A stretch of DNA of 64,000 nucleotides, from IMG/VR virus record IMGVR_UViG_3300035696_000034, positions 8,487 to 72,486 of that record; one strand, written 5' to 3'. Both the position numbers and the translations under genes were made by a program. How positions within the stretch are numbered: position 1 is the stretch's first letter; each line of letters begins with the position of its first letter. This document shows, piece after piece, positions 8,478 through 32,231 of this stretch. The stretch is from a virus (Duplodnaviria > Caudoviricetes). The notes under the pieces are model-generated. The model had not been told where the DNA came from. It was given only the letters and a program-made list of their open reading frames with translations, and did not search any database.

Positions 8478-8557
8478 GGCAATGTAGCTCAGTTTTGGTA
8501 GAGCGGTGCTCTCATAAGGCGCGTCAGTCGGCGGTTCGATCCCGCCCATTGCCACCA
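8478..8557 (+). tRNA. tRNA-Met or Ile2 (CAU)
   Basis: cloverleaf, loop CTCATAA, encoded CCA. Confidence 0.85.
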
Positions 8558-8575
8558 GGTAAAAAGAAGGTTTTT

Positions 8576-8821: not shown

Positions 8822-8828
8822 AAATTAA

Positions 8829-8901
8829 TGCGGGAGGCTAGGCCCTGTGGTCTGGGAACTCTCATAAGGTTCCAACCTACGTTCAACTCGTAGTCCCGCA
8901 A
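8829..8901 (+). tRNA. tRNA-Met (CAU), atypical D arm
   Basis: TGCGGGA/TCCCGCA acceptor, GAACT/GGTTC stem, loop CTCATAA. Confidence 0.7.
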
Positions 8902-8958
8902 ATTTTGTTATCAATAGCAGCTTTAATTTCAACAGCTATTAATAAAATATCAACTAAT

Positions 8959-9036
8959 AGCAGGGTCGTCTAGTCCGGTTAAGATACTGGGCTCATAACC
9001 CGGAGATCGTTCGTTCAAATCGAACCCCTGCAACCA
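8959..9036 (+). tRNA. tRNA-fMet (CAU), initiator type
   Basis: 1-72 mismatch, GGG/CCC anticodon stem, CCA. Confidence 0.9.
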
Positions 9037-9044
9037 CTCACAGC

Positions 9045-9111
9045 GGGAGACCGACGTCAGTAGCTTTAGTAAAGTATCCGGTAAAGGATCTCTATTGACC
9101 TTTCGTCTCCC
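9045..9111 (+). ncRNA. tRNA-sized structured RNA candidate inside array 1
   Basis: GGGAGAC(C)GA/TCGTCTCCC, GTCAGTAG/CTATTGAC and two small hairpins. Confidence 0.45.
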
Positions 9112-9122
9112 CATGAATTAAA

Positions 9123-9198
9123 GGGCGTATCGTCCAACGGTTTAAGATGCGAATCTGATAAGTTCGAGATCGTAGTTCAATTCTACGTACGCCCACCA
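9123..9198 (+). tRNA. tRNA-Ile (GAU)
   Basis: cloverleaf, loop CTGATAA, CCA. Confidence 0.9.
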
Positions 9199-9204
9199 TT
9201 TTAA

Positions 9205-9277
9205 GGCTGTTTAGCCTACGCGGTCACGGCGCTCGCCTGAAGAGCGAGATATTCCAGTTCGACTCTGGAAGCAGCCA
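9205..9277 (+). tRNA. tRNA-Phe (GAA)
   Basis: cloverleaf, loop CTGAAGA; no encoded CCA. Confidence 0.9.
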
Positions 9278-9294
9278 TTTTTTAAGTTTACAAG

Positions 9295-9381
9295 GGAGAG
9301 TTGGGTGAATGGTAAAACCACGAGTTTGCTAAACTCGCGTCCGTCAAGGACATGCAGGTTCGAGCCCTGCACTCTCCGCCA
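9295..9381 (+). tRNA. tRNA-Ser (GCU)
   Basis: long variable arm, loop TTGCTAA, G73, CCA. Confidence 0.9.
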
Positions 9382-9388
9382 GTTTTAC

Positions 9389-9465
9389 GGGTCTGTAGTT
9401 TAGTTGGTTAAAGCACCTGATTGTCGATCAGGATATCGGGAGTTCGAATCTCCTCAGACCCGCCA
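9389..9465 (+). tRNA. tRNA-Asp (GUC)
   Basis: cloverleaf, loop TTGTCGA, CCA. Confidence 0.9.
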
Positions 9466-9474
9466 TTTTATACA

Positions 9475-9549
9475 GGGTTGCTCGTTCAGCGGCTAGGACC
9501 TACGGTTGTCGACCGTATGACAGGAGTTCAACTCTCCTGCAGCCCGCCA
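9475..9549 (+). tRNA. tRNA-Asp (GUC), second copy
   Basis: cloverleaf, loop TTGTCGA, CCA. Confidence 0.85.
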
Positions 9550-16481: not shown

Positions 16482-16673
16482 TCACTGAATAAATCCCTCT
16501 ATCTGTTCCTCACACGAATCGTAAAACTCCTTTAAAACTGAAATTGCATTTTTAATCCGCTCAGCATCTTTTTTATCGACGCATATTTCATCTGGATTTA
16601 GATATCCACCATCAGTTAAATCGTACCAAAAATCATTCTTTATCCAAGCCTCACAATCCTTTTTTACTTTCAC
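16482..16673 (-). CDS. hypothetical protein
   Basis: 63 aa ORF. Confidence 0.55.
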   Translation of the reverse strand: MKVKKDCEAWIKNDFWYDLTDGGYLNPDEICVDKKDAERIKNAISVLKEFYDSCEEQIEGFIQ

Positions 16674-18991: not shown

Positions 18992-19003
18992 AATACATAT
19001 AAC

Positions 19004-19474
19004 ATGGAGGTAATTATGCCAGAAAAAGAAAAAGACAATGTTCGTCCAACTGAAAAAGAAGGCGAATTTCAAGAAATCCTGCAAAAAGCTAAAGAAGAAA
19101 GAAACGCCAAAACAGGGAAGCTGACAGAAGAAGCCCTTCTGGATAGTTTTATAAAACATGTTGTTCTTACTCTGTTTGTGGAATACTGCAACAAACAAGA
19201 AAAACCGAAAGAAACTGCCAGCGCTCTTTTAAAACAATGGTCTGATACAGCTAGCTCTGGCTCGACAAAAGCTTTTGAAGAGTTGGATGAAGAAAGAAAA
19301 AAAGAATCTGAAACATTTCCGAATATAAATTCACTTTTCAGCGGTATCTTCGGGCTTAATGATAAAACTGAATTGGATGAGTACAGTGACATTTTTAAAA
19401 AAGCTTTGGGTACTGTTGTTACTGAAATAAACACAATAATAAGCACTCTTCCGGAAACAAAGGGAACAAAATAA
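19004..19474 (+). CDS. hypothetical protein
   Basis: 156 aa ORF; GGAGG RBS suggests start at 19016. Confidence 0.65.
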   Translation: MEVIMPEKEKDNVRPTEKEGEFQEILQKAKEERNAKTGKLTEEALLDSFIKHVVLTLFVEYCNKQEKPKETASALLKQWSDTASSGSTKAFEELDEERKKESETFPNINSLFSGIFGLNDKTELDEYSDIFKKALGTVVTEINTIISTLPETKGTK

Positions 19475-19496
19475 TCTCTTTAAAAGGAGACTATCC

Positions 19497-19721
19497 GTGG
19501 ACGAAGGCCTTAACTTCACTCCCGAAGAGGATGAGATAGTAATTAAAAAAGCTAAACTCTTAATTGAGCAGTCCAAGACAAAAGAACAACTTAAGACGAC
19601 CAAAAATTTCATAGAACTTTTTACAAGAGATTCCGAAAGCAAGAAAGAGATAAAAGAAGAACTCATACGCCTGTGGCTTGATAAGGATAAGTTACTTTTT
19701 CCATATGAAGCATTACCGTGA
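19497..19721 (+). CDS. hypothetical protein
   Basis: AAGGAG RBS, GTG start. Confidence 0.6.
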   Translation: MDEGLNFTPEEDEIVIKKAKLLIEQSKTKEQLKTTKNFIELFTRDSESKKEIKEELIRLWLDKDKLLFPYEALP

Positions 19722-19924
19722 CGACTTCTATACTGTCATTTTCTTTGGAACCTAATCAGAGTGAAGCAATAGAGATCACTCTGAAGACCGGTGAAGTTGT
19801 CCGTGGAGCATTGCTCAGATTTAATGAAGGTACAATGACTCTTAAGATCTGTGATGCACAGGATAATTTTTCTGGAGAAGAAAGAGTAATTAAAGATAAG
19901 GAATGGATCAAGGGGATAGATTAA
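19718..19924 (+). CDS. hypothetical protein (possible Sm-like fold)
   Basis: ITLKTGEVVRGALLRFNEG. Confidence 0.5.
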   Translation: MTTSILSFSLEPNQSEAIEITLKTGEVVRGALLRFNEGTMTLKICDAQDNFSGEERVIKDKEWIKGID

Positions 19925-19937
19925 TGAGGGGGTTACG

Positions 19938-20204
19938 ATGTCCTCCCAGTTATCTGACTTTGAGAAAAAGACATACGTAGAACGAAGAAAAATAGAGACA
20001 GACCGTTTTGATGAGGGTATGAGACGACAGCACGATCCCAGGAATGATGGGGATTATGATCTAGATTGGGTCATAAGAAATGCTGCCGATTTCAACAGAC
20101 AGTGGAAAAATTGTATCTGTAAAAATTGCAAGAACGTTAAAGAGTGCGGTTTCAAATTAGCTACGGATTGTGCACATTTTGTTGAAGAAAAAAATAATAG
20201 TTGA
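19938..20204 (+). CDS. hypothetical protein
   Basis: 88 aa, RBS. Confidence 0.6.
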   Translation: MSSQLSDFEKKTYVERRKIETDRFDEGMRRQHDPRNDGDYDLDWVIRNAADFNRQWKNCICKNCKNVKECGFKLATDCAHFVEEKNNS

Positions 20205-20229
20205 CATTTCTTTGTTTTGCGTGTATATT
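20201..20229 (+). promoter_or_regulatory. promoter of tRNA array 2
   Basis: TTGACA-17nt-TATATT. Confidence 0.85.
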
Positions 20230-20257
20230 TAGTACAAAGGAAAAATGGTAAAGTCAT

Positions 20258-20383
20258 ATGGATCGTAAAATCTCTATAACCCTAACATCGTCCGCGCTCT
20301 GTTTGTGCGCAACTGCACAGACATGGGCCGGATTACGCTCACATCTGTATCTTACAGGGCGTAAAAGGCGGGGTTTAGAGTAA
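20258..20383 (+). CDS. attenuator leader peptide 2 (41 aa, MDRKISITLTSSALCLCATAQTWAGLRSHLYLTGRKRRGLE)
   Basis: codons match all 17 downstream tRNA species; weak SD, and an overlapping 7-aa uORF starts at 20245. Confidence 0.8.
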   Translation: MDRKISITLTSSALCLCATAQTWAGLRSHLYLTGRKRRGLE

Positions 20384-20444
20384 AGATACACTCTAATTGG
20401 CAAACAAAAACCCCGCCGAAGAAGTTCAGCGGGGTTTTTGTTTG
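20367..20444 (+). terminator. attenuator 2: antiterminator/intrinsic terminator pair
   Basis: terminator CAAACAAAAACCCCGC/GCGGGGTTTTTGTTTG (20401-20444); GGCGGGGTTT (20367-20376) pairs perfectly with AAACCCCGCC (20408-20417). Confidence 0.88.
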
Positions 20445-20499
20445 TAATAAAGTATTAATAATAAAACCACCTGTATACTATATTCCCGGGGGTTTTATT

Positions 20500-20955
20500 A
20501 TGAAGACTAAAGAAAGACTAATAGCAAGAGAACTACGTCAAAAAAAAGGAATGTCTTTACGAAATATTTGCAAAAAATTAAATATAGCTAAAAGTACGGC
20601 TCGTGCTTGGACTAAAGATATAAAGATAACTGAAAAACAAAAAGAGAACCTTAGAAAGAACGTAACAAATAGCCAGTTTACTACTAAAATTCAAGACAAA
20701 GATTTGTTTGTTTGTCCCTGTTATGTAAACAGAAAATGTATAAAAAAAAGAATTTTAAAAAAGGCCCTCATTCCATATATATGCGCGCTTTGTAGTAGAC
20801 CTCCTATATGGGAAGGACAAAAACTAGTTCTTATACTAGATCATATAAACGGAAACAATCTTGATTACAGGTTAAGCAATATAAGATTTTTGTGTCCTAA
20901 TTGTAATAGCCAACAAGAAACGTTTTGTAGAAATAAAAAGGTTAAAAATGTTTGA
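20500..20955 (+). CDS. HNH homing endonuclease with N-terminal HTH
   Basis: CALC..LILDHINGNNLDYRLSNIRFLCPNCNSQ. Confidence 0.85.
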   Translation: MKTKERLIARELRQKKGMSLRNICKKLNIAKSTARAWTKDIKITEKQKENLRKNVTNSQFTTKIQDKDLFVCPCYVNRKCIKKRILKKALIPYICALCSRPPIWEGQKLVLILDHINGNNLDYRLSNIRFLCPNCNSQQETFCRNKKVKNV

Positions 20956-21127
20956 ATACATCATAATGATCAGAATACCTTTCGAAGCAGGGGATGATCC
21001 AGATGCCCGAAAGAGGGCTCAAGATCTTCTGAAATACGATGTCAGTATCAATGTCCCTGAAGCCACTATGAAACTTCAGAGACTTGAGAAGGGTAAGGCA
21101 CCTGAAGGAATAGCTTTGTTTACGTAG
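20948..21127 (+). CDS. small hypothetical protein (59 aa)
   Basis: read by hand: MFEYIIMIRIPFEAGDDPDARKRAQ...; overlaps the upstream stop. Confidence 0.55.
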   Translation: MFEYIIMIRIPFEAGDDPDARKRAQDLLKYDVSINVPEATMKLQRLEKGKAPEGIALFT

Positions 21128-21129
21128 GT

Positions 21130-21198
21130 GCAGTTGTGCTTCCCCACCATGGTCGTCGTGGGGCGGAGCAGAGACCATAAAAATATGGGCGCAATTGC
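21130..21198 (+). ncRNA. structured RNA candidate D with possible pseudoknot
   Basis: GCAGTTGTGC/GCGCAATTGC closing stem; CCCCAC/GTGGGG hairpin whose loop ATGGTC is complementary to GACCAT. Confidence 0.5.
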
Positions 21199-21304
21199 TT
21201 TTTAAATGTTCTTTGACATTTCGGTAATACTCAAAAAGCACATGTGTGAAATTAACATGTATGCTTAGGACATACAACAGTATGGTCTAACCGTACATTC
21301 AAAA

Positions 21305-21380
21305 GACGGTGTAGCCAAGTGGTAAGGCGGCTCGTCCGCAAAACGATGCCATTGGGGTTCGACTCCCCACACCGTCTCCA
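21305..21380 (+). tRNA. tRNA-Cys (GCA), C33
   Basis: loop CCGCAAA, U73, CCA. Confidence 0.8.
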
Positions 21381-21388
21381 TATACCCC

Positions 21389-21445
21389 GGTATGTCGGAG
21401 AAGATCGGTTGACAGAGTATCGTTAGCTATCAACTCCGATGTGCC
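21389..21445 (+). ncRNA. small structured RNA candidate between tRNAs
   Basis: 12-bp GGTATGTCGGAG/CTCCGATGTGCC stem plus GTTGA/TCAAC. Confidence 0.35.
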
Positions 21446-21450
21446 TTTAA

Positions 21451-21528
21451 GCCCTGGTGTTGGAATGTAGACAAGCACGCCTTAGAAGCGTGTGCGAAAG
21501 CGTGAGAGTGCGAGTCTCTCCCGGGGCA
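21451..21528 (+). tRNA. tRNA-Leu (UAG)
   Basis: loop CTTAGAA, variable arm, A73. Confidence 0.88.
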
Positions 21529-21625
21529 TTTTTTTATCCATGTAAAAACAATTTATAATAACCTCTTAATAAAATTAGCATACTTGAAAGTACTTGTGTT
21601 TAAGTGTATGCTATTTTAACAGGAG

Positions 21626-22522
21626 GTGGGTATGAGGAGCAAAAAGTTTGATGAAAAAAAAGAAGAGATATTACAATGGGTTAAAGAAAATAGAAGCAAA
21701 GCTTTTATATGCAAAGAAATGGATTGTAGACCCAGCACTTTGGATCACTATTTCAAAGAAATAAGTATAATTTATGCGGGAAACATGGGGTGTAAAGGCT
21801 ACAGAAGACCAGCTCATAAAATACCTGTTAAAGAATATCTAGGTACAGGAAAACTTATAAGGTCTCATGCATTAAAATTAAAACTAATAGAAGAAGGAGT
21901 CAAAGAGAAGAAGTGTGAGAGGTGTGGTTTAGAAAAGTGGCTTAGCAAAGACATTCCCCTTGAATTACATCATATTAATCAAAATAGATTTGACAACAGA
22001 CTAGAAAATTTAGAAATTCTCTGTTCAAATTGTCATGCTTTAGAAAACAGCAAAATAAAAAGAAGGATAGATATCTTAGAAAGATTTTGTTTGAATTGTA
22101 ATAAAAAAATTGAAGTAAAAGATAGTCATTACAGAAAGTATTGTTCTAATGAGTGCATAAAAGAAGCAAAAAGAAAAATTAAAAAAATAAGGTTTTGTTT
22201 GAGTTGCAGTAATGAATTTAGTGGTAGAAATAAAAAATTTTGTTCAGAACTATGTAAAAAAGAACACGATAAAACATTAAGAAAATTTGAAATAGAAAAA
22301 GATGTATTAGAAAAGCTAGTTAACTCCGTATCAACTTCTAAAATTGCTAGAATACTAGGAGTTACAGACAATGCTGTTTCTCATAGATGTAAACGATTAG
22401 GAATAAAAAAACCTCCTAGAGGTTTTTGGGCAAAAAAGTGCTCAGGAAAATCTCCAGACATCACAAAAATAGACAAAAATTTAATAGATTACTTACAGAA
22501 GAAAGGCTATAGAATAGATTAA
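21626..22522 (+). CDS. HNH homing endonuclease with Zn-ribbon repeats
   Basis: CERCG..LELHHINQNRFDNRLENLEILCSNCH; repeated CxxC..KxCSxxC. Confidence 0.85.
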   Translation: MGMRSKKFDEKKEEILQWVKENRSKAFICKEMDCRPSTLDHYFKEISIIYAGNMGCKGYRRPAHKIPVKEYLGTGKLIRSHALKLKLIEEGVKEKKCERCGLEKWLSKDIPLELHHINQNRFDNRLENLEILCSNCHALENSKIKRRIDILERFCLNCNKKIEVKDSHYRKYCSNECIKEAKRKIKKIRFCLSCSNEFSGRNKKFCSELCKKEHDKTLRKFEIEKDVLEKLVNSVSTSKIARILGVTDNAVSHRCKRLGIKKPPRGFWAKKCSGKSPDITKIDKNLIDYLQKKGYRID

Positions 22523-22534
22523 GATTTATTTTGT

Positions 22535-22621
22535 GCGGATGTGGCGTAACTGGAAGCCGCGCAAGCCCGAGGCGCTTGTGGGAGAAGTCCCGTGCTGATT
22601 CGAATTCAGTCATCCGCACCA
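22535..22621 (+). tRNA. tRNA-Leu (GAG), C33
   Basis: CAAGC/GCTTG stem, loop CCGAGGC, CCA. Confidence 0.85.
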
Positions 22622-22658
22622 CTTCAATAATAGCTTCCCACAATGTTATATTATACAC

Positions 22659-23252
22659 ATGGATCTCTACATTGAAACTCGTGATCGCATGCTGGCTAAA
22701 GACAGGGATATATGGCTATGGTGCATGAACAACAAATGTGTTTACCTAAATATCGGATGTGGAGATAGCGTTTACGCAGGAGCGATAAACATAGACAAAT
22801 ATGTCAGAAGAAAAGATGTCTTACCTGCAGATGCCCTCTATCTTCCATTTAAAGATAACAGCGTGGATTTCATATATTCAGCCCATTCTCTGGAGCATTT
22901 GACTATAAGGGATGGAAAAAAGGCTCTAAAGGCCTGGTATAAGGCTTTAAAGCCAAACGGAAGACTTATAATAGAGTTGCCCGACTTAGAATGTATCTGT
23001 CGCAATGTCCTTAATTCTATATATCCTAAACAGCTACAATGGAACATTTATACTCTTTTTGGATATCAAATCGATCCTCGAAATTCAGACAGTTTAGATG
23101 CCAAAGCAGATCCTGGTCAATTTCATATGAGTGGATATACCCAAACAAGTCTATGCTTGGAACTTGCTATGTTAGGATTCGAGATAAAAGAGTTCCTGCA
23201 TACTGATGGTTATGGGACTCCCAACATGCATGTAGACGCCTTCAAAAGATAA
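22659..23252 (+). CDS. class I SAM-dependent methyltransferase
   Basis: LNIGCG, DALYLPFKDNSVDFIYSAHSLEHL, LKPNGRL. Confidence 0.85.
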   Translation: MDLYIETRDRMLAKDRDIWLWCMNNKCVYLNIGCGDSVYAGAINIDKYVRRKDVLPADALYLPFKDNSVDFIYSAHSLEHLTIRDGKKALKAWYKALKPNGRLIIELPDLECICRNVLNSIYPKQLQWNIYTLFGYQIDPRNSDSLDAKADPGQFHMSGYTQTSLCLELAMLGFEIKEFLHTDGYGTPNMHVDAFKR

Positions 23253-23256
23253 TCCT

Positions 23257-23340
23257 GCGGGTATGGGGAAATTGGCAGACCCAGTAGGCCCAGATCCTAC
23301 CGAGAGTAATCTCATTTCAGTTCAAGTCTGAATACCCGCA
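23257..23340 (+). tRNA. tRNA-Leu (CAG), C33
   Basis: GTAGG/CCTAC stem, loop CCCAGAT. Confidence 0.85.
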
Positions 23341-23360
23341 TTTCCTACATATCAATTTAT

Positions 23361-23446
23361 TGTGTGGTGGCAGAGCGGCCAATTGCACCTGACTGTAGAT
23401 CAGACGCCTGTAATGGGCTACGGAGGTTCAAATCCTCCCCACACAA
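23361..23446 (+). tRNA. tRNA-Tyr (GUA)
   Basis: loop CTGTAGA, long variable arm, A73. Confidence 0.88.
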
Positions 23447-23469
23447 CTCTTTTATAATCAACTAATTAT

Positions 23470-23544
23470 GGTGGCATTAGTGTAGTGGTAGCACAAGTGG
23501 CTGTGGCCCACTTAGAGCGAGTTCGATTCTCGTATGTCACCCCA
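23470..23544 (+). tRNA. tRNA-His (GUG)
   Basis: G-1:C73, loop CTGTGGC, CCA. Confidence 0.9.
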
Positions 23545-23572
23545 ATTTTAACTTTACAGAAAGGATAATCCC

Positions 23573-23904
23573 ATGCGAAAGGCAAGCCTACCTTAACGGT
23601 TACAGGTGAAACCGAAGATGGAAAATTAGTTGTATCAGGTGTCTTTGAACTCATGTCCTCTGTACTCGGAGTCCCCTTAGAGTTTCTCCTCGAGATGTTA
23701 AAAGAGAGAAACATTCTAGTAAGTTGGACTCACTTCTATAACTCCTCTGTAGAACATCTCTGGAGTTATAAGACAACAAGGGAGAGAGTGAGTACAGCTG
23801 TGTTTGAGGTTTACGGCCCGGAGTACAGAGATGAGGTGATGAAGAGGTTGGATTATTATCATAGGAGCGTATCAGACAGGTCTCCAAAACCTGATTTACT
23901 GTAA
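23573..23904 (+). pseudogene. hypothetical protein with apparent 1-nt deletion just after the start codon
   Basis: AAAGGA RBS and ATG 23573 are out of frame with the AKGKPTLTV... ORF; adding one G gives MAKGKP. Confidence 0.5.
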
Positions 23905-23944
23905 TTGGGTGAAAATGGGGGTTCGACTCCCTCCGCTCCTGCCA
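23863..23944 (+). tRNA. atypical tRNA-Trp (CCA): no D arm, long variable arm
   Basis: AGGAGCG/CGCTCCT, CAGGT-CTCCAAA-ACCTG, GGGGG-TTCGACT-CCCTC, G73-CCA; only 7 nt between acceptor and anticodon stems. Confidence 0.7.
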
Positions 23945-23981
23945 CCCATAAATTATCTGTTAATAGGTTTCGAATCTTAAT

Positions 23982-24057
23982 GCCGGTGTATCTCAATTAG
24001 TAGAGGGCCTCACTTGTAATGAGGAAGTTGGGGATGCAAGTTCCTCCACCGGCCCCA
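23982..24057 (+). tRNA. tRNA-Thr (UGU)
   Basis: loop CTTGTAA, CCA. Confidence 0.88.
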
Positions 24058-24064
24058 TTTTTTC

Positions 24065-24138
24065 GCTTCTGTAGTTTAAAGGTAGAATGCGCCCTCGGTA
24101 AGGGTGAGGAGCTTTCGGTTCGATTCCGGCCAGCGGCT
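24065..24138 (+). tRNA. tRNA-Thr (GGU), C33, degenerate acceptor stem
   Basis: CGCCC/GGGTG stem, loop TCGGTAA; one acceptor mismatch. Confidence 0.6.
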
Positions 24139-24145
24139 TTTTTCT

Positions 24146-24174
24146 TTAGGAATCAATTGTCTAGATAGTATATT
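24146..24174 (+). promoter_or_regulatory. possible promoter
   Basis: AGATAGTATATTA -10 motif; weak -35. Confidence 0.4.
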
Positions 24175-24258
24175 ATTATAGACCCAAACCTCATTGAAAG
24201 GAGCACATAATGGCATCCACCACCATGCGGTAGCGAGTACCGCTAGAAGGGATCCATT

Positions 24259-24531
24259 ATGTCTCATCCGAAGGATCGTCATGAACGCTTCCTCATCGGC
24301 AAAAAGCTTGGGGAAAAACGAGGGTACAGGTATTGGAATGGGTTTAAATTCATCCGGGACGAAGAGCAGAGGAAAGAAGATCTCAGAATAGCCTCTTTTA
24401 AAAGACGAGATACCACCAAACTTTGTTCTTGCATGATGTGTGGAAATCCTCGCAGGATGTCCTCAAAAAAAGATGTTAAGCTTACTATGCAAGAAAGAAA
24501 ACTTCCAGATTGGAAGAAGGAGGCAGAATGA
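24259..24531 (+). CDS. hypothetical basic protein
   Basis: 90 aa; CSCMMCGNPRR. Confidence 0.65.
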   Translation: MSHPKDRHERFLIGKKLGEKRGYRYWNGFKFIRDEEQRKEDLRIASFKRRDTTKLCSCMMCGNPRRMSSKKDVKLTMQERKLPDWKKEAE

Positions 24532-24716
24532 CTCGAGCTGCAGCAGGTCTTAAAAAACATTATTGGAATTGCGTAACAAAAGTATGGATGGCTGGTAATA
24601 CTAAACTATCCGCAGAGATGGTTTGTGCAGTTACCGGAACTCCTGATAAAAAATTGAATTTTAATAAAGTACGGATGCTACTGAAAGAAGCAGAAGACTA
24701 TATAAAAAATCTTTAA
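24528..24716 (+). CDS. hypothetical protein
   Basis: GGAGG RBS, ATGA coupling. Confidence 0.55.
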   Translation: MTRAAAGLKKHYWNCVTKVWMAGNTKLSAEMVCAVTGTPDKKLNFNKVRMLLKEAEDYIKNL

Positions 24717-24730
24717 CTAAAGGAGAACAT

Positions 24731-24988
24731 ATGCCTCAATTATCCGGAGACCTAAAGTCATATAGTGGAATAACTTTGATGGAACGAACAAAAAGTATGC
24801 TTGAAAAAGCCACAAAGCTAGGATTTACAATTCTCCCTTCCGTTTACAGAGATAAAACAACCAGTGAAAAGATCTATAATGTCTTCAAATGCTACAACGG
24901 TAAAGAAGAAGCCTATGCTCTTATAGTCAAAGACTGGATAAAAGGATTCCCGCGAATCGATTCTAAAGGGAATATCAAAGCAAAGTGA
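24731..24988 (+). CDS. hypothetical protein
   Basis: AGGAG RBS. Confidence 0.6.
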   Translation: MPQLSGDLKSYSGITLMERTKSMLEKATKLGFTILPSVYRDKTTSEKIYNVFKCYNGKEEAYALIVKDWIKGFPRIDSKGNIKAK

Positions 24989-25010
24989 TTTTATACGGGA
25001 AAGGTTTCTC

Positions 25011-25550
25011 ATGTACGTAATGGTTGATATCGAAGCGGATGGTCCGATCCCAGGGGATTATTCGATGATCTCGTTCGGGGCGGTTTTGATCGACAGATCA
25101 CCTTTAGCTATATCGACTAACAAGGAAAAATTCGATACTACCTTTTTTGGGAAGCTCCATCCCATATCTGATCAATTCGTTCCGGAAGCTCTGGCAGTTT
25201 CTGGTTATACCAGAGAAGAGACTATGACATTCCCCGATCCCCTCAAGGTTGTGCAGAATTTTGATCTATGGCTGCACGAGCATAATCGGGAGCAGCCAAA
25301 GTTTATTTCCGATAATAACGGATTCGACTGGATGTTTATGTGTTGGTATTTTTGGCATTTTCTCCATAAGAATCCATTCGGTCACAGTTCTACAAATTTA
25401 GGGTCATTTTATAAGGGCATCGAGAGGAGTTTTAAAAGAAATTTTAAACATCTTCGGAAGACCAGGCACTCGCATAATCCTATGGAAGATTCAATCGGTA
25501 ATGCAGAGGCATTTTGCACGATTATTCAGAACAATCATGTCGAGTATTAA
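25011..25550 (+). CDS. DEDDh 3'-5' exoribonuclease (Rv2179c-like)
   Basis: VDIEADGP, DNNGFDW, HNPMED. Confidence 0.8.
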   Translation: MYVMVDIEADGPIPGDYSMISFGAVLIDRSPLAISTNKEKFDTTFFGKLHPISDQFVPEALAVSGYTREETMTFPDPLKVVQNFDLWLHEHNREQPKFISDNNGFDWMFMCWYFWHFLHKNPFGHSSTNLGSFYKGIERSFKRNFKHLRKTRHSHNPMEDSIGNAEAFCTIIQNNHVEY

Positions 25551-25622
25551 GGGGCTGTAGATTAGTGGGAAATCGGGACACCGGCAGTGTTCAGAGCGTC
25601 AGTTCGACCCTGACCAGCTCCA
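25551..25622 (+). tRNA. tRNA-Ala (GGC), C33
   Basis: G3.U70, loop CCGGCAG, A73. Confidence 0.85.
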
Positions 25623-25637
25623 CTTTTAAGGATCATT

Positions 25638-25853
25638 GTGAATAAAGAAGAGTTCTACGAATACATGGACGATCAGAATAACTATGAGAGGGTCGTCCTG
25701 GGAATCGACATAGCAGTTATGCATGTTGGATTTGAAGCTGTCTACGATGCGAGCATACAGTGCGGCAGAGCTAAAGATGTTGAGGCTATGCAGTATATCA
25801 TAAATAACCATATAAACACAAACATGCTTGCAAAAATATCGGGGCTGCATTGA
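25638..25853 (+). CDS. hypothetical protein
   Basis: 71 aa, GTG start. Confidence 0.5.
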   Translation: MNKEEFYEYMDDQNNYERVVLGIDIAVMHVGFEAVYDASIQCGRAKDVEAMQYIINNHINTNMLAKISGLH

Positions 25854-26035
25854 AATACCCAAAGAACTTTATCAACTATTGGGACGAAGGTCAGAAAATC
25901 AGGCATCTGAACTGGAATCTAAAAAGAAACAGCACGCAGATTGTTAAAAGGCTGGGCATTGTTAGATGGTATAAAAAAGGATTCTGGAAGAGATATTTCA
26001 GGAAAAAGATGACGAGAGAGGCACTATGGGAATGA
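25850..26035 (+). CDS. hypothetical basic protein
   Basis: 61 aa, coupled. Confidence 0.45.
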   Translation: MKYPKNFINYWDEGQKIRHLNWNLKRNSTQIVKRLGIVRWYKKGFWKRYFRKKMTREALWE

Positions 26036-26292
26036 TAAAAGTCGGTGATTACTTTAAGACCAAAACTGGAGCTTTAGGTGTCGTTGTAATCCTCATAGGA
26101 GGAGGCACTCCTCGGGAACTCTACGGGGACATGGCTCCAGGAGCCGAGAGCGGCTATGAGTATTTCACACTGTACGTTGACAAAAATCTAAGATACGGAA
26201 GATCGAAGGTACAGCTGATGCCCCTCAATAGATATGCTATCGGGGATGTCACAAAGATCAGCAAACGAGAATACAATCAATTGTTGAGGTGA
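26026..26292 (+). CDS. hypothetical protein
   Basis: 88 aa. Confidence 0.55.
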   Translation: MGMIKVGDYFKTKTGALGVVVILIGGGTPRELYGDMAPGAESGYEYFTLYVDKNLRYGRSKVQLMPLNRYAIGDVTKISKREYNQLLR

Positions 26293-26558
26293 ATATGCTC
26301 CTTCCATCATCAACAACTGTAATGCGGATACCGTCTTACTTTCTTAGGGTAAAAAAGACTGGTATGATTAGTATAGCTTATGAATGTCATCCAGATGGCA
26401 TCCACCTTCACTTAGAGAGAGATTTACACGCATACACCTTGGAAGATCTGGAACCTGCAACTGAAGAAGAATATCAAGATCAAATAAGACGCATTAAAAA
26501 TACTCACACTGAAAAAGAATACAACGAACTTTTAGAAAATTTTAAAAAAAGACTGTAA
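26289..26558 (+). CDS. hypothetical protein, paralog of 28003..28257
   Basis: shared MLLP..VM.IPSY.L.VKKTG..DGIHL.LERDL..LEP.TEE.Y.DQI. Confidence 0.7.
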   Translation: MNMLLPSSTTVMRIPSYFLRVKKTGMISIAYECHPDGIHLHLERDLHAYTLEDLEPATEEEYQDQIRRIKNTHTEKEYNELLENFKKRL

Positions 26559-26574
26559 CTCAGCCGGAATAGAA

Positions 26575-26757
26575 ATGAACCTCTACAAATTTGGTGTTTT
26601 ATTGTTTTGGATTGGTGTAGTATTAGGCATCGCGGTGATTATCGGGAGCATATGGTGGCCACAATATACAATAACAACTTTAGGTGGAATTGTCGTATGC
26701 ATAGCAACATCCTCAATGGTTTCTGGAGTTTTTGTACTAATAATGTTAGAGGGATGA
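26575..26757 (+). CDS. small two-TM membrane protein
   Basis: two hydrophobic stretches. Confidence 0.55.
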   Translation: MNLYKFGVLLFWIGVVLGIAVIIGSIWWPQYTITTLGGIVVCIATSSMVSGVFVLIMLEG

Positions 26758-26761
26758 TTAA

Positions 26762-26953
26762 ATGGCACTAACAGCAGGACTCGCAAAAGTGATGGGTTGG
26801 AAGCTAGATCACCCCAACGGTCTTGATGACACGCCTTGGGTGATGCCTGTAGAATACAGAAAAGTCCCGACATTAGCAGATGTTATTAAACATGGCTTTG
26901 AGTTCTCAAGAAAAATTGAGCGGGATCTTAAAAAATTGAAGAGAAAGAAATAG
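26762..26953 (+). CDS. hypothetical protein
   Basis: 63 aa. Confidence 0.5.
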   Translation: MALTAGLAKVMGWKLDHPNGLDDTPWVMPVEYRKVPTLADVIKHGFEFSRKIERDLKKLKRKK

Positions 26954-26956
26954 TTT

Positions 26957-26978
26957 GGGGCTGTAGCACAGTTGGGAA
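26957..26978 (+). pseudogene. 5' fragment of a tRNA-Ala
   Basis: GGGGCTGTAGCACAGTTGGGA then breaks off. Confidence 0.6.
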
Positions 26979-27011
26979 TGTGTTTATAGGTATATATAAA
27001 GGAGTTTTTGT

Positions 27012-27605
27012 ATGAGCATGATTTCAATTGATTCAGAGTGGATTTGTGGAAACTCAATTCCAAGTGAATCATTCGTTTGTGGTTTTTGTAATGTAAGAAT
27101 TTCTTCGGCAAAAGGATTCAAATTGTTTTCAAAACAAATACGCGGTCATTCAAGATCTAAAACAAGAGGCGGTATATACATCTGCGATAATTGCAACGGC
27201 CCAACTTTTATTTCAGAAGCCGGGCATCAATATCCATTACCTGCTTTTGGGAGTTCTGTTAAAAATGTACCCCAAAACATAAACACACTTTATGAAGAAG
27301 CAAGAAACGGCACCAAAGCAAAAAATTATACGAGCTCAGTTTTATTGTGTCGAAAAATATTAATGCACATTGCAGTAGAGAAGGGTGCTGAACCAGGTTT
27401 ACCCTTTATTGGGTATGTGAATTTTCTAGAAGAAAATCATTACGTTCCGCCTGATAGTAGAAGTTGGGTTGATCGTATCAGAGTAAGAAGTAATGAGGCT
27501 AACCATGAAATTGAAATTATGACTCAAACAGACGCAGAGAATCTAATTACTTTTATTGAAATCATACTAAGGTTTCTGTATGAAACACCTAGTTTGATTA
27601 GATGA
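27012..27605 (+). CDS. DUF4145 domain protein
   Basis: CGFC..CDNC Zn ribbon; LYEEAR..SSVLLCRKILMHIAVEKGA..DRIRVRSNEANH. Confidence 0.8.
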   Translation: MSMISIDSEWICGNSIPSESFVCGFCNVRISSAKGFKLFSKQIRGHSRSKTRGGIYICDNCNGPTFISEAGHQYPLPAFGSSVKNVPQNINTLYEEARNGTKAKNYTSSVLLCRKILMHIAVEKGAEPGLPFIGYVNFLEENHYVPPDSRSWVDRIRVRSNEANHEIEIMTQTDAENLITFIEIILRFLYETPSLIR

Positions 27606-27611
27606 AAATTT

Positions 27612-27682
27612 GGGGCTATCGTCCAGTGGGAAGACTCTTGCCTTGCACGCAAGAAACGGCAGTTCGAATCTGCCTAGCTCCA
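27612..27682 (+). tRNA. tRNA-Ala (UGC)
   Basis: G3.U70, loop CTTGCAC, A73. Confidence 0.9.
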
Positions 27683-27709
27683 TTTAAATATTTATCAGAA
27701 AGGAACCTT

Positions 27710-27985
27710 ATGGGATCTAAATTTACCGTACCTCTTGAAAGAATTCCCTGGCCGGAAGAAATCAGCCGATGGGTTATTGCAATGATGCTTAAGAACAAAA
27801 CGGAAAAAGTAGAAATGACCTATAGGGAAGTTGATGAAGCTTCTAAAAATTATGAGTTAGTTGTAGCGGACAAACTTCTTCCAGATTCAGGTCTAAATGA
27901 AAAAACGGATCTTGGCAAAGCCGAAGTAATATTTTCATTAAGAAAAGTGGAAAAAGAATTAAGAAAACCTTTTTGGGAAGTTTAG
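27710..27985 (+). CDS. hypothetical protein
   Basis: AAGGA RBS, ATG 27710. Confidence 0.6.
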   Translation: MGSKFTVPLERIPWPEEISRWVIAMMLKNKTEKVEMTYREVDEASKNYELVVADKLLPDSGLNEKTDLGKAEVIFSLRKVEKELRKPFWEV

Positions 27986-28002
27986 CTTAAAAGGAGAGAA
28001 CC

Positions 28003-28257
28003 ATGCTTCTTCCAGGATCATTAATGACTGTAATGCAAATACCATCTTATTATCTTAAGGTAAAAAAGACTGGTAGGATTGGTATAGCTGATGAACCCCA
28101 CCACGACGGTATCCATCTTCGTTTAGAAAGAGATTTATATTGGTATTCGCTGAATGAACTAGAACCTTCAACTGAAGAAACTTATCTAGACCAAATAAAA
28201 CTCATCAAAAGTGCGCGTACAGATGAAGAGTATAAAGAAGTTCTTAAGGGGATATAG
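28003..28257 (+). CDS. hypothetical protein, paralog of 26289..26558
   Basis: AGGAG RBS; shared motif. Confidence 0.7.
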   Translation: MLLPGSLMTVMQIPSYYLKVKKTGRIGIADEPHHDGIHLRLERDLYWYSLNELEPSTEETYLDQIKLIKSARTDEEYKEVLKGI

Positions 28258-28306
28258 CTCAGCTGGGAGAGCACTACGTTCGCATCGTTCCCGATCATCT
28301 CCACCA
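28248..28306 (+). pseudogene. tRNA-Ala (CGC) with internal deletion
   Basis: intact acceptor, D arm, TTCGCAT loop and ACCA end; 3' anticodon stem, variable loop and most of the T arm missing. Confidence 0.7.
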
Positions 28307-28325
28307 AAATCGCAAAGGAATATTT

Positions 28326-28937
28326 ATGAAATCAAATTTTCCCACAGTTCCTGATTTAATTGCAAACGCAAAAGCTATTAAGAAGTTTAAAAGAGTGATA
28401 CACGAAAAATTAAATGTAGGTGAGATGCCGATATATGATATAAAAGCAGGTGACAAAGCTTTAAGTTACGATCCTTATAATCAAGGTTGGTATTTTGCCC
28501 CAACACTTAATGCTGAAATTGGTGACGATAATAACAGAGACGAGCGTTATACTAATACAGACCGAAGATGCTACACGTGTGGGTCTTTTGCAATTGATGA
28601 TCTTCAGGCATTTGAAGATTGTTGTAAAAATCTTGAGGATTGCAGTGGTAGAGAATTATTAATGATTACGTGGGGCGACAGATATGACGAATTTGCAATG
28701 ATAATTAAAGACATATATGAGAACAACCCGAAATATATCCTTACATCTTTAGAGCAGCGCTACAAAATAGCAGTCAATGCTTTAATCAATATTGTTAAAG
28801 GTGGATGTTTTTATCCCAACAAGAAAGAAGCTAAAACAGCCCTACAAAGACTTATTTATAAAACAGCGGATGAAGATAAGTCTATAACTCTTGGTCCTGA
28901 TTTTAAAAAAGAACTCATGAAAATATTAGCAGAATAA
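28326..28937 (+). CDS. hypothetical protein
   Basis: 203 aa. Confidence 0.65.
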   Translation: MKSNFPTVPDLIANAKAIKKFKRVIHEKLNVGEMPIYDIKAGDKALSYDPYNQGWYFAPTLNAEIGDDNNRDERYTNTDRRCYTCGSFAIDDLQAFEDCCKNLEDCSGRELLMITWGDRYDEFAMIIKDIYENNPKYILTSLEQRYKIAVNALINIVKGGCFYPNKKEAKTALQRLIYKTADEDKSITLGPDFKKELMKILAE

Positions 28938-29058
28938 AATAGGAATTATATATTTTGCTACCCAGGAGATAAATCTATGAAAAATTTATTATTTTTCATC
29001 AAGCATCCTTTATTCAGTATAAAACAACGAATACTTTTCATATGGTATTGGAAAATAA

Positions 29059-29289
29059 ATGGTAGAAAAACCTATGAAGAACTTAAAAAACATAAATAAA
29101 ATATTCTTACGCATAATCGGCTGGTGTCCATACTGCCGTACGATTTTTCATTATCCCAAAAAAAGGCGTATGAATACCCAATATGCCAAAGAAGAATCCA
29201 ATTGGGTTACTTGTTGCAAACCTCAATTTGATGAAATCCAAGAATACTGGAAAGAACGTTGGGCTGATTACTGGTCAGGTTGTCTATAG
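29059..29289 (+). CDS. hypothetical Zn-finger protein
   Basis: WCPYC..TCC. Confidence 0.55.
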   Translation: MVEKPMKNLKNINKIFLRIIGWCPYCRTIFHYPKKRRMNTQYAKEESNWVTCCKPQFDEIQEYWKERWADYWSGCL

Positions 29290-29301
29290 AAGGACAGTCT
29301 T

Positions 29302-29616
29302 ATGAAATCTTTAATCATGCGAGAACATGATGCTATGAAAAATAAAATGGGTCTTCGCTATTATAAAGATCCAGAAGGGGGCTATTCGAATTCCCCTATA
29401 ACGCCGCACTCAGAGGTAAGCCTGGGCTATGATTGGACTATCACGGTTGAATCTTTGGGCGTGAAACACAAATATAAACTTACCAGTAAATCTGGTATGA
29501 TATCTACCGCTGAAATAATTGCAGTCCTTTGTAAAAATACTGATTTAAAAATATTATTTACAGCGGAAGATAAGGCAAAATTCGAGCGTGCTTGGAAAAG
29601 AAAGTTTGGAAAATAA
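29302..29616 (+). CDS. hypothetical protein
   Basis: 104 aa, RBS. Confidence 0.6.
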   Translation: MKSLIMREHDAMKNKMGLRYYKDPEGGYSNSPITPHSEVSLGYDWTITVESLGVKHKYKLTSKSGMISTAEIIAVLCKNTDLKILFTAEDKAKFERAWKRKFGK

Positions 29617-29622
29617 TTTTTA

Positions 29623-29732
29623 GCTCGGGTGGCGAAATTGGTATACGCTGGGGTCTTAACGGGTAGAAGATTTTATTTCTATCCTTTAAACCCTTGGGGA
29701 AACCCATGAGGATTCGAGTTCCTCCCTGAGCA
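29623..29732 (+). tRNA. tRNA-Leu (UAA) with 28-nt hairpin insertion in the anticodon loop
   Basis: Leu-type D and variable arms; GGGGT/ACCCT stem; CTTAA-[29660-29687]-AA. Confidence 0.75.
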
Positions 29733-29761
29733 CTTTAAAATTTTTTATTTAAAGGTATAAA

Positions 29762-30079
29762 ATGTTAAGCCAAAAATTTAAAGACCAGCTTGCTGCTGTT
29801 GCTAAAAAATATAGAAAAAAGCGTATAGATTGTTGTGCAGCATGCTCCCTTGTTAAAGATAAGCAACATTGTAAATACTGTATCATGGAAAAAATCGATA
29901 TGTTTTGCGGTCGTCCAGTTGTCAAAGTATACGAACCCGCTCATTCTGTCTGGATGGTTCGTGAAACTCCTATTACTTATGAAGATGTGCTTAGGCTCTA
30001 TTCTGCACTAGAACTTTCAAAAGACATTTCTGATATAATTTATGATGATGATTGGGACAACGGCTATAAAAGCTGTTAA
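29762..30079 (+). CDS. hypothetical protein
   Basis: 105 aa. Confidence 0.55.
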   Translation: MLSQKFKDQLAAVAKKYRKKRIDCCAACSLVKDKQHCKYCIMEKIDMFCGRPVVKVYEPAHSVWMVRETPITYEDVLRLYSALELSKDISDIIYDDDWDNGYKSC

Positions 30080-30105
30080 ACATTCTACAGGTAAAAACAT
30101 TAAAT

Positions 30106-30339
30106 ATGTCATATGAACTTGGTCATTGCAATAAATGTGGTTGGAAGGGTGACATAGACAAAGCCGACCAAAGGACTGAGGATGAGCTTTTATATCTCTA
30201 CTGTCCAAAAGGTTGCGACGAAGAAGTAGCCCCTCGGAGACCTGTGAATGCTTCCAAGGATTATTTCGTGAACATGTTTCAGAATCTATTTAAAGAGAAA
30301 AAAGACGGATATGAATTTGATCCTGATGGGAAAAAATAA
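30106..30339 (+). CDS. hypothetical Zn-ribbon protein
   Basis: CNKCG..CPKGC. Confidence 0.55.
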   Translation: MSYELGHCNKCGWKGDIDKADQRTEDELLYLYCPKGCDEEVAPRRPVNASKDYFVNMFQNLFKEKKDGYEFDPDGKK

Positions 30340-30342
30340 TAC

Positions 30343-30436
30343 GGCGAGATGCCAGAGCCTGGTTTATCGGGCTAGTCTTGAAAACTAGTGTGGAGTTAAA
30401 AGGCCACCGCAGGTTCAAATCCTGCTCTCGCCGCCA
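30343..30436 (+). tRNA. tRNA-Ser (UGA)
   Basis: loop CTTGAAA, long variable arm, G73-CCA. Confidence 0.9.
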
Positions 30437-30444
30437 ATATGAAG

Positions 30445-30532
30445 GGAAGAGTGTCCGAGTGGTTTAAGGAGCACGCCTCGAAAGCGTGTGTGCAGAAATG
30501 TACCCTGGGTTCAAATCCCAGCTCTTCCGCCA
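30445..30532 (+). tRNA. tRNA-Ser (CGA)
   Basis: loop CTCGAAA, long variable arm, G73-CCA. Confidence 0.9.
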
Positions 30533-30549
30533 TCAAAGAAAAGTCCTTT

Positions 30550-30699
30550 ATGCCGAACGAATTAAAACGGTGTCCTTGTTGTGGTGGTGAAGCCCAGCGT
30601 TCATCCGATGGAGGATGTAGAAATTTTACTATTTTTTGTACCTCATGTGGATTAGACATCGTCGATTATGGCTCCCGTGAATATGGAAAAGAGTATTGA
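30550..30699 (+). CDS. Lar-family restriction alleviation-like protein, possibly truncated
   Basis: LKRCPCCGGEA..IFCTSCG. Confidence 0.55.
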   Translation: MPNELKRCPCCGGEAQRSSDGGCRNFTIFCTSCGLDIVDYGSREYGKEY

Positions 30700-30744
30700 T
30701 TATATTTGAGCTGAAGAGTTTATTATCATAGATTTGTAAAAATT

Positions 30745-31860
30745 ATGAAACTCATCCGTTCTTCCAAATGTAGCTTAAAATTCGCTACAACCTCCAAACT
30801 CTCTAAGCTTCGTAAGGTGCTTTCTGAATGTGGCCGAGTCTGTAACATCTTTATTGATTACTTTTGGAAAAGTGGCACTCCCTCTAAATCTGAACTCTTA
30901 AAAGAAATAGTAGACATCCCACAAGGCACTTGGCTGACCGCTCGGCTTCGTAAAATAGCCGCCCGGGAAGCTATAGACATGATTAATGCTGTGAGAGAGA
31001 GGTGGAAGGATAAACCTTGGAAGATCTCTATGCCCATACATAAGGGCAAGAGAGCTTACGTCTCCTGTACCATAGCGGATCTTCAGGAAAAAGGTGGTTC
31101 TAAGGAATTTGATGCCTGGCTTCATTTGTCCTCTGTCGGGAAAGAGACAATCCTGGACCTTCCTATTAAATTTCATAAACATTATAATAAATTAGCTCTT
31201 CAAGGAAAACGCTTGAATTCCTACATCCTTACAAATAAATATGTCCAGTTTTCATTTGAAATAGATGTAGGTGAGAAGAAAAATGGCGCTAACGCTATAG
31301 GCATAGATACTGGGATCAAAGCCCTTGCCTCTTTAAATAACGGCGCTCAATTCGGTTTAGATATTGAAACCCTTATCGAGCGTATCAAACGCTGTCAGCA
31401 TGGCTCTAATGGTCAGAAACAAGCCCGGAAAGCCTTTAAACAGAGGATAGATGAAGCCGTCAAAGAGGTAGTTAAACATTTTGAGCATATAGATTTGGTC
31501 GTGGTAGAAGCATTAAAAAACATGAATTACAAGAGTAAACTCAAACGTCGCTTGAGTAAAAATATGCGGCGTTCTATCGGCACTTGGGCGTATAGGTACT
31601 GGTTAAAAAGGCTGGAGCAAGCCTGTGAGACTAACCGTGTTAGTTTTCGCACCGTGGCTCCTTTTTATACCAGCCAAACATGTCCGAGCTGTGGTCATGT
31701 CGATAGGGGGAATAGAGTAGGACAAATGTTCCGGTGCCTAGTATGTGGTCACACAGGTAACGCAGATATTATTGCAGCCAGGAACATATTGACTCGATTT
31801 CTTACGGGACTCTACGGTGCCCGTTACAAACCATACGAAACTATATTTAATATTTCATAG
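30745..31860 (+). mobile_element. tnpB: TnpB/Cas12f-like RNA-guided endonuclease (IS200/IS605 family), no tnpA nearby
   Basis: RuvC motifs IGIDTG, VVEAL, TSQTCPSCG..CLVCG..NADIIAARNI; 3' hairpins at ~31804-31864. Confidence 0.88.
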
Positions 31861-32230: not shown

Positions 32231-32231
32231 T

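Follow-up and report, generated by a model that had tools for sequence, protein, structure and literature searches.

A putative leader-peptide transcription attenuator with two sister units upstream of tRNA gene arrays in a huge phage of peat soil

The 64,000-nt stretch of DNA analyzed here (the window; G000:C1:8487-72486) belongs to the 72.5-kb IMG/VR viral record IMGVR_UViG_3300035696_000034, which is rated 29% complete by CheckV and therefore points to a phage of roughly 250 kb; its source is a huge phage of peat soil. All coordinates are positions in the window unless they are marked as record positions. The subject of this study is a compact element at 20201-20445, named unit C, which lies upstream of a long array of tRNA genes and is considered together with two similar elements, unit B at 8249-8476 and unit A, located outside the window at record positions 2429-2702 (locus L010). 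The stretch is present in two peat metagenome DNA runs and shows zero variants in both, so microdiversity offers nothing to compare, and the sequencing-run search listed no RNA run as holding it.

Unit C, all the elements of which lie on the plus strand, begins with a promoter (20201-20234) that consists of TTGACA (20201-20206) and TATATT (20224-20229) separated by 17 nt, scores 11/12, and is the best sigma-70-like site across 17-36 kb; its extended motif, GTGTATATTTAGTA, is common with unit B. The transcript, which would start near 20236, has an A-rich 5' end whose first 19 nt are unpaired in the predicted fold. An open reading frame (ORF) of 41 codons, MDRKISITLTSSALCLCATAQTWAGLRSHLYLTGRKRRGLE, occupies 20258-20383 and is followed right away by an intrinsic terminator (20400-20445) composed of a 17-bp stem, with its 5' arm at 20400-20416 and its 3' arm at 20429-20445, and a U-tract. 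The order of promoter, short ORF, and adjoining terminator is the layout of a leader-peptide attenuator. An A-tract upstream of the terminator gives it a bidirectional appearance, and a simple terminator scanner overlooked it because its loop exceeds 8 nt. A mini-ORF of seven codons, MVKSYGS* (20245-20268), read from the sequence, lies behind the best Shine-Dalgarno (SD)-like motif, AAAGGA, and overlaps the start of the leader ORF, and either coupling or competition between the two frames is possible. The initial annotation of this DNA, which was made from the sequence alone, had named the promoter, the 41-codon ORF, and a strong terminator after it, and had cautioned that the better SD precedes the ATG at 20245; these descriptions were reproduced, and the caution is correct. 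A weak promoter-like site on the minus strand was also found at 20504-20477. Separately, contigs of 1.9 and 2.2 kb from the peat runs carry sequences that resemble the promoter (20191-20246; 56 nt, of which 9 differ) and the terminator (20402-20443; 42 nt, of which 6 differ; contig depth 34), and these may represent other loci of the same phage, other phages, or the host.

Downstream of unit C, ARAGORN and Rfam together identify an array of 16 tRNA genes on the plus strand (array C, 21305-33914), among which protein genes are interspersed. In order, the array encodes Cys-GCA, Leu-UAG, Leu-GAG, Leu-CAG, Tyr-GUA, His-GUG, Trp-CCA (atypical), Thr-UGU, Thr-GGU, Ala-GGC, Ala-UGC, Leu-UAA (atypical), Ser-UGA, Ser-CGA, Leu-CAA, and Ser-GGA. 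ARAGORN accounts for 15 of these genes and Rfam contributes one more, at 29623-29732. The initial annotation had counted 17, but its Ala-CGC tRNA was not confirmed: the sole candidate, at 26741-26826, appeared at a very low ARAGORN threshold and has no credible acceptor or T arm. Its labels for two unusual genes fared better, because the Rfam covariance alignments side with them against those of ARAGORN. The Trp-CCA-like gene at 23863-23944, labeled Ser-ACU by ARAGORN, has 4 nt in place of the D-arm and a 20-nt insert in the variable region, whereas the 74-nt gene at 24065-24138 is Thr-GGU with C33 under the Rfam model and “Leu-AAG” for ARAGORN, its anticodon register being ambiguous. The gene at 29623-29733, for which ARAGORN gives Lys-UUU with a 16-nt intron, has a long variable arm of the Leu type and an insertion of ∼28 nt in the anticodon loop (CUUAA..AA), and looks like Leu-UAA apart from this insertion. 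In the comparisons below, the strict set means the 13 anticodons called cleanly by ARAGORN, and the wider set means the 17 anticodons of the initial annotation.

Codons 6-33 of the leader ORF are nearly all Leu, Ser (UCN), Ala, Thr, Cys, Trp, His, or Tyr codons, with 21 distinct cognate codons. Counted with the wider set, 25 of the 41 codons are cognate to array C, including 23 of the 26 in codons 8-33, the figure originally reported, and all 17 anticodons find a partner among the 21 distinct codons. The strict set gives 20 of 41 overall, 19 of 26 in codons 8-33, and 17 distinct codons, and the addition of Trp-CCA and Thr-GGU raises the count in codons 8-33 to 22 of 26. The earlier statement that each downstream anticodon has a cognate leader codon holds for all 16 confirmed tRNAs. 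In a permutation test of the leader codons, a check suggested with the initial annotation, dinucleotide shuffles evaluated with the strict set yielded P values of 0.04 for the count, 0.01 for coverage of all anticodons, and 0.001 for the number of distinct codons, with a joint value of ∼4e-4; the values for the wider set were jointly attained by 0 of 20000 shuffles. Among 41-codon open windows sampled from the six frames of the record, ∼1 in 10,000 attains the values of leader C. The match is also specific to the frame: the five other frames of the same stretch contain only 12-16 codons read by the array, compared with 20 (strict set) or 25 (wider set) in frame.

The RNA of unit C can adopt the mutually exclusive 1:2, 2:3, and 3:4 pairings expected of such an attenuator. 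The transcript 20236-20445 is predicted to fold with -82 kcal/mol (z=-7.45), and in this minimum free energy structure region 1 (CUCUAUAACCCU, 20272-20283) pairs with 20370-20380 of region 2 and closes a three-way junction around two hairpins within the ORF (20290-20333 and 20334-20363), so that region 1 would serve as an anti-antiterminator; the two hairpins are candidate pause or structure elements. Region 2 (GGCGGGGUUUAGAG, 20367-20380), which coincides with codons 37-41, has either region 1 or region 3 as its partner, and its pairing with the latter would form the antiterminator. The core of region 3, AAACCCCGCC (20408-20417), is part of the 5' arm of the terminator, while region 4 is the 3' arm. 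As had been noticed earlier, the 5' arm of the terminator pairs perfectly with the end of the ORF: GGCGGGGTTT (20367-20376, codons 37-40) is complementary to the core of region 3 over 10 nt, and when the upstream sequence is shuffled, 0.055% of the shuffles contain a perfect complement of this length (p=5.5e-4). As long as region 4 has yet to be transcribed, the nascent RNA prefers the 2:3 fold (-61.4 kcal/mol) over the 1:2 fold (-55.6 kcal/mol), which is weaker by 5.8 kcal/mol, whereas the full transcript prefers the terminator state at -82 kcal/mol. It follows that readthrough has to be under kinetic control, as it is in classical attenuators. We also folded the nascent RNA preceding region 4 while masking the footprint of a ribosome for every A-site position in turn, an analysis that had likewise been suggested with the initial annotation. 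Regions 3 and 2 paired with a probability of 0.84 as long as the A site was at codons 2-33; the value fell to 0.76 at codon 34 and was 0.25 at codon 35 and all later positions up to the stop codon, so that in these models the antiterminator is on until codon 33 and collapsed from codon 35.

Decisive support for reading unit C as an attenuator comes from the three-fold replication of this putative arrangement within the record. Unit B (plus strand) possesses the promoter TTGCAT-17-TATATT, the SD sequence AGGAG, a leader at 8312-8407 (MTSRTIMTIISMAIISDFDSMDDFMSQREFF), and a terminator at 8430-8475, and its leader contains the segment ..IMTIISMAIISDFDSMDDFM.. and has a stretch in which 18 of 20 codons specify Met, Ile, Ser (AGY), Asp, or Phe. 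Array B, on the same strand at 8478-9549, encodes Met (three genes), Ile-GAU, Phe-GAA, Ser-GCU, and Asp-GUC (two genes), the first tRNA-Met gene beginning 2 nt past the terminator. Unit A is composed of the promoter TTGACA-17-TATATT, the leader MIFVVNPNNNQPQPRIIDSLGGEIIH, which includes the segment ..NPNNNQPQP.., and a terminator, and precedes genes for Pro-UGG, Asn, Asn, Pro-UGG, Gln-UUG, Pro-CGG, and Gln-CUG. The promoters of the three units align, and TATATTTAGTA is found exactly three times in the 72-kb record, once in each unit and nowhere else; the 14-mer GTGTATATTTAGTA has two exact copies in the window. As for the distribution of the promoter outside this record, the extended form TTGACATTTC-N12-14-TATATTTAGTA also precedes ordinary protein genes in unrelated viral and metagenome contigs (L017 3696-3729, L020 1412-1445, and L021 4236-4268), and it is probably a host-type strong promoter that is not specific to tRNA leaders.

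Each leader corresponds to its own array. The numbers of codons read by arrays A, B, and C are 8, 7, and 3 for leader A, 1, 20, and 5 for leader B, and 1, 2, and 20 for leader C, and at the level of amino acids the diagonal of the leader-by-array matrix is 9, 20, and 24 with off-diagonal values of 1-7. Every leader ranks first among the 755 short ORFs of the record for the amino acids of its own array, and 0 of 20000 shuffles attain the best windows of 9/9 (A), 18/20 (B), and 22-23/26 (C). When Ser is split by codon box, the three arrays have no amino acid class in common, an outcome seen in 0 of 200000 shuffles, which have on average 6.7 shared classes. The control codons thus correspond to the genes that would be regulated, as seen in the 16/16 anticodons, the shuffle p of ≤4e-4, and the diagonal matrix. 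The same mask folding places the start of the antiterminator drop after codon 24 in unit B and restricts the antiterminator of unit A to A-site positions at codons 7-15, and the spans of array-cognate codons are 6-33 in C, 6-25 in B, and 6-14 in A. The association between cognate codons and antiterminator-permissive positions (Fisher p of 0.007 for C, 0.076 for B, and 7e-5 for A) supports the idea that the cognate codons sit where a stall would allow the antiterminator to form.

We consider that 20201-20445 is a ribosome-mediated (leader-peptide) transcription attenuator of tRNA genes, with a probability of about 0.7, and the best explanation of the sequence features is that unit C is one of at least three paralogous units, each of which would govern one amino-acid-sorted block of tRNA genes. 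The promoter, the ORF, the terminator, the alternative pairings, the codon-anticodon match, the placement of cognate codons with respect to the switch point, and the three-fold replication were all computed. The initial annotation had likewise read the locus as attenuation of the trp/his/ilv type, and the exclusive pairings, the mask-fold switch at codons 33-35, and the two sister units with leaders for their own arrays support it. The proposed mechanism is as follows. The strong sigma-70-type promoter would start a transcript whose A-rich, unpaired 5' end admits ribosomes to the 41-codon ORF. If decoding is prompt, the ribosome at codons 35-41 or at the stop codon would cover region 2 (GGCGGGGUUUAGAG), so that region 3 would find region 4 as its partner and the resulting 17-bp terminator would halt RNA polymerase. 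If the ribosome stalls at any of codons ∼6-33, where all 16 downstream isoacceptors are sampled at least once, region 2 would be exposed and would capture region 3 once it is made; the terminator would then be blocked, and RNA polymerase would read on through the HNH gene, a probable insertion, to reach the tRNA genes whose products decode those codons that are limiting. The supply of usable tRNA would in this way be under negative feedback. We infer the translation of the ORF, the stalling, the readthrough, and the co-transcription of the whole 12.6-kb array from this arrangement, and the physiological trigger would presumably be host tRNAs that do not match or are lost, possibly to defenses that cleave tRNA, although a link to anticodon nucleases is speculation.

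Several observations weigh against this proposal. The ribosome-binding site of the ATG at 20258 is weak (GGTAAAG, with 4-nt spacing), and the better SD-like AAAGGA belongs to the mini-ORF at 20245. When amino acid classes alone are compared, unit C tops the next short ORF by just 23 to 21, a narrow lead that arises because set C covers 25 of the 61 codons, and unit C by itself therefore provides suggestive, moderate evidence. Only one or two codons of the leader represent each isoacceptor, whereas classical attenuators have runs of control codons, and the sensitivity of such sparse sampling is uncertain. When no ribosome is present, the nascent RNA at equilibrium likewise prefers the antiterminator, so the untranslated default may be readthrough, unlike that of trp. 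The gene that follows the terminator is not a tRNA gene but one for a helix-turn-helix (HTH)-HNH endonuclease (20500-20955, plus strand), which has its own SD and whose HNH and HTH matches are both under the Pfam cut-offs; the first tRNA gene (Cys) is 860 nt away from the terminator, and the gap also holds a 59-codon ORF. The HNH gene is probably a mobile insertion, because the first tRNA genes of units A and B lie only 2-46 nt past their terminators. Array C itself spans 12.6 kb amid genes for HNH, methyltransferase, RNase T-like, TnpB, and sigma factor proteins, and internal promoters or terminators may uncouple its distal tRNAs. A fourth -35-type box, TTGACATTTC, is located at 21213-21222, 90 nt upstream of tRNA-Cys, lacks a convincing -10, and may be a remnant or an internal promoter. 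Finally, the tRNA region of a distant 429-kb relative (G002) has no comparable leader/terminator units, two others (G001 and G003) show none either, and relatives carrying leader C were not found in searches by neighbor genes, leader DNA, or promoter pattern.

The details of these searches are as follows. The adjacent 88-aa gene has three protein relatives (P0002-P0004) with 67-73% identity, and neither the gene nor its alignment retrieved any relatives from viral or metagenome contigs when used as a query. An exact DNA word from the leader had no match in viral contigs, the methyltransferase neighbor returned no relatives, and the RNase T-like neighbor led to three distant records in which blastn did not find the leader and no tRNA genes were located nearby. 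Promoter-pattern scans of viral and metagenome contigs returned only unrelated loci without tRNAs. A blastn search of INPHARED gave no match for unit C and only generic tRNA-Asp/Phe similarity for unit B with its array. The 41-aa peptide has no homologs in a set of 5.8 billion proteins, in which it is not itself called as a protein, and no match in PHROGs. The Rfam leader families stayed under their gathering scores, with His_leader (RF00514) at 31.2 versus 49 bits on the minus strand and Thr_leader (RF00506) at 24.9 versus 55 bits, and these scores are driven by the terminator.

The probable insertion of the HNH gene raises the question of whether unit C still serves the array. It might be an attenuator of tRNA genes by origin that was uncoupled by this insertion and by internal promoters and that now controls the HNH gene only, or nothing. 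The 860-nt gap with an ORF bearing its own SD before tRNA-Cys and the TTGACATTTC box at 21213 would fit such a history, as would the closeness of the first tRNA genes to the terminators in units A and B (2-46 nt). We nevertheless regard a relic or re-targeted attenuator as unlikely, because the promoter, the ORF, the 10-nt antiterminator, and the terminator are all intact and no change of gene direction occurs between the leader and the end of the array, and because the leader still matches 16/16 anticodons, including those of tRNAs 13 kb away, which argues for ongoing selection. The very stable fold (z=-7.45) and the run of the unit from promoter to terminator could instead reflect a stand-alone gene for a structured small RNA of ∼205 nt, like the stable RNAs of the T4 tRNA region, with the 41-codon frame open by chance. 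The ORF is indeed uncalled as a gene, lacks homologs in the set of 5.8 billion proteins, and has a weak ribosome-binding site, and an open frame survives in 16% of shuffles. Such a gene would, however, leave unexplained the frame-specific codon-anticodon match, the overlap of cognate codons with the stall window, and the two sister leader peptides, one of which has a strong SD; together with zero matches to Rfam families, these points make it quite unlikely.

Attenuation by a ribosome stalled on the leader also has to be weighed against two readings in which the codons would not be sensed. The compact three-way junction (P1 20272-83/20370-80, P2, and P3; z=-7.45) might bind a ligand or a tRNA in the manner of a riboswitch or T-box, with a stabilized P1 freeing the terminator in a translation-free mechanism, and the overlap of the 3' strand of P1 with the antiterminator is architecture typical of OFF riboswitches. 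Since no riboswitch or T-box model matched 19000-35000 even at E≤1, the sister units fold differently yet keep the peptide logic, and the codon match is frame-specific, we find such a sensor highly improbable. The same low probability is assigned to a peptide-coding role, in which the ORF would specify a small secreted or membrane peptide or a type I toxin-like product; its sequence has a charged N terminus (MDRK), a 20-residue core rich in Leu, Ser, Ala, Thr, and Cys that extends to ATA|Q, and a basic tail, GRKRRGLE. A structured mRNA with its own promoter and terminator does resemble type I toxin loci, and there is a weak, subthreshold match on the opposite strand to ohsC in Rfam (E=0.56), but the core is devoid of Val, Ile, Phe, and Met, which membrane segments commonly have; a near-exhaustive use of synonymous codons (21 distinct in 25) would be unexpected for a gene selected for peptide function; and the peptide has no homologs, while the sister leaders are not hydrophobic.

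All genes from leader C through array C run in the same direction. Three HNH endonuclease genes are found among the tRNA genes, at 20500-20955, 21626-22522, and 34118-34753. Inside array C there are also a TnpB-like gene (Cas12f1-like TNB domain, OrfB_IS605) at 30745-31860 and a gene for a complete factor of the sigma-70 family (regions 1.2, 2, 3, and 4) at 32441-33298. Apart from the three arrays, a tRNA with a CUA anticodon (amber suppressor; “Pyl” for ARAGORN) is encoded at 3382-3457, and CUA-anticodon tRNAs also exist in the distant relatives G001 (L015 4093-4252) and G002 (16553-16621 in the reverse complement of 320001-390000), which may mean that TAG is recoded in part of the genome.

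Attenuators of amino acid operons work through a stall on control codons, which leads to the antiterminator, whereas a ribosome at the stop codon leads to termination; trpL, hisL, leuL, and pheL sense a single amino acid, and the leaders of ilvGMEDA (Ile/Val/Leu) and thr (Thr/Ile) are multivalent. Unit C resembles them in its promoter, its short leader with control codons, its 1:2, 2:3, and 3:4 hairpins, its intrinsic terminator, and the sensing of more than one amino acid that it would perform. It differs in that its presumed targets are tRNA genes, along with the HNH gene, while the classical scope is biosynthesis or synthetase genes; this is the point of novelty and no argument against the mechanism. 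The leader samples eight amino acids and 16 isoacceptors about once each, not in runs, and the system is phage-encoded, forms a set of units that would partition codon space, and may have readthrough as its untranslated default. The pheM leader of pheST and T-box riboswitches are similar in that feedback from charged tRNA acts on the decoding machinery through a choice between terminator and antiterminator; their targets are, however, synthetases, and T-boxes bind uncharged tRNA without translation, while unit C has no T-box motif or model match.

A similar layout, without any sequence similarity, was seen in a partial re-check of the Caulobacter phage phiCbK (JX100813; L019 41-270 and 1842-2003), in which units of a short ORF and a terminator precede blocks of tRNA genes and the ORF compositions lean toward the amino acids of the block that follows; these analogous units count in favor of the proposal. 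The annotated 45-aa gp083, with 23 of 44 residues being Pro, Lys, Leu, or Ser, and an annotated terminator are followed by tRNA genes for Pro, Pro, Lys, Lys, Leu (three), and Ser (two), and in the second unit the leader segment ..QFVRQIQVVRNI.. and a terminator are followed by those for Phe, Val, Ile, Ile, Val, Gln, Gln, and Gly. Because phiCbK is a cultured phage, it is a possible experimental system. The nearest published case is an accessory tRNA array with inducible expression in a cell: the trn operon of Anabaena sp. PCC 7120 is horizontally spread and silent until translation is impaired (PMC8421152). Its control involves direct repeats in the promoter and the repressor TrcR (PMC8421152, PMC10272220), and its paper makes no mention of an attenuator, a leader, or a terminator. 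The trn operon supplies additional tRNAs under impaired translation, as proposed here for the phage arrays, but it is cellular and promoter-controlled. Full-text literature searches did not find leader-peptide attenuation of tRNA genes described, in agreement with the original remark that no description of the arrangement was known for phage tRNA clusters; the class of mechanism is known, while the tRNA target and the census design are new.

The presence of tRNA genes in phages is an old puzzle, for which codon compensation and evasion of defenses that target tRNAs are the present explanations (PMC10264068, PMC11464382), and the control of phage tRNA expression is hardly addressed. If the present proposal is true, the phage would measure decoding directly and feed the outcome back on tRNA supply, and a classic mechanism would gain a new class of targets. 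It would also explain why tRNA genes are sorted by amino acid into blocks and would provide a testable link between tRNA depletion and phage countermeasures, and the compact design of ∼210 nt could serve elsewhere to sense shortages of particular tRNAs. A broader possibility, for which we see about even odds, is that the units compose a distributed homeostat of the tRNA pool, in which codon-partitioned attenuators would test nearly every isoacceptor through the translation of one codon for it and would switch on only the failing block; the available 29% of the genome contains three such units, and a fourth is predicted for Arg/Gly/Lys/Glu/Val. In such a system, unit C would be the extreme case, with a census of 16 isoacceptors in one 41-codon leader, and the phage would be able to make up for tRNAs that are scarce in its host or lost to tRNA-cleaving defenses without the cost of constant overproduction.

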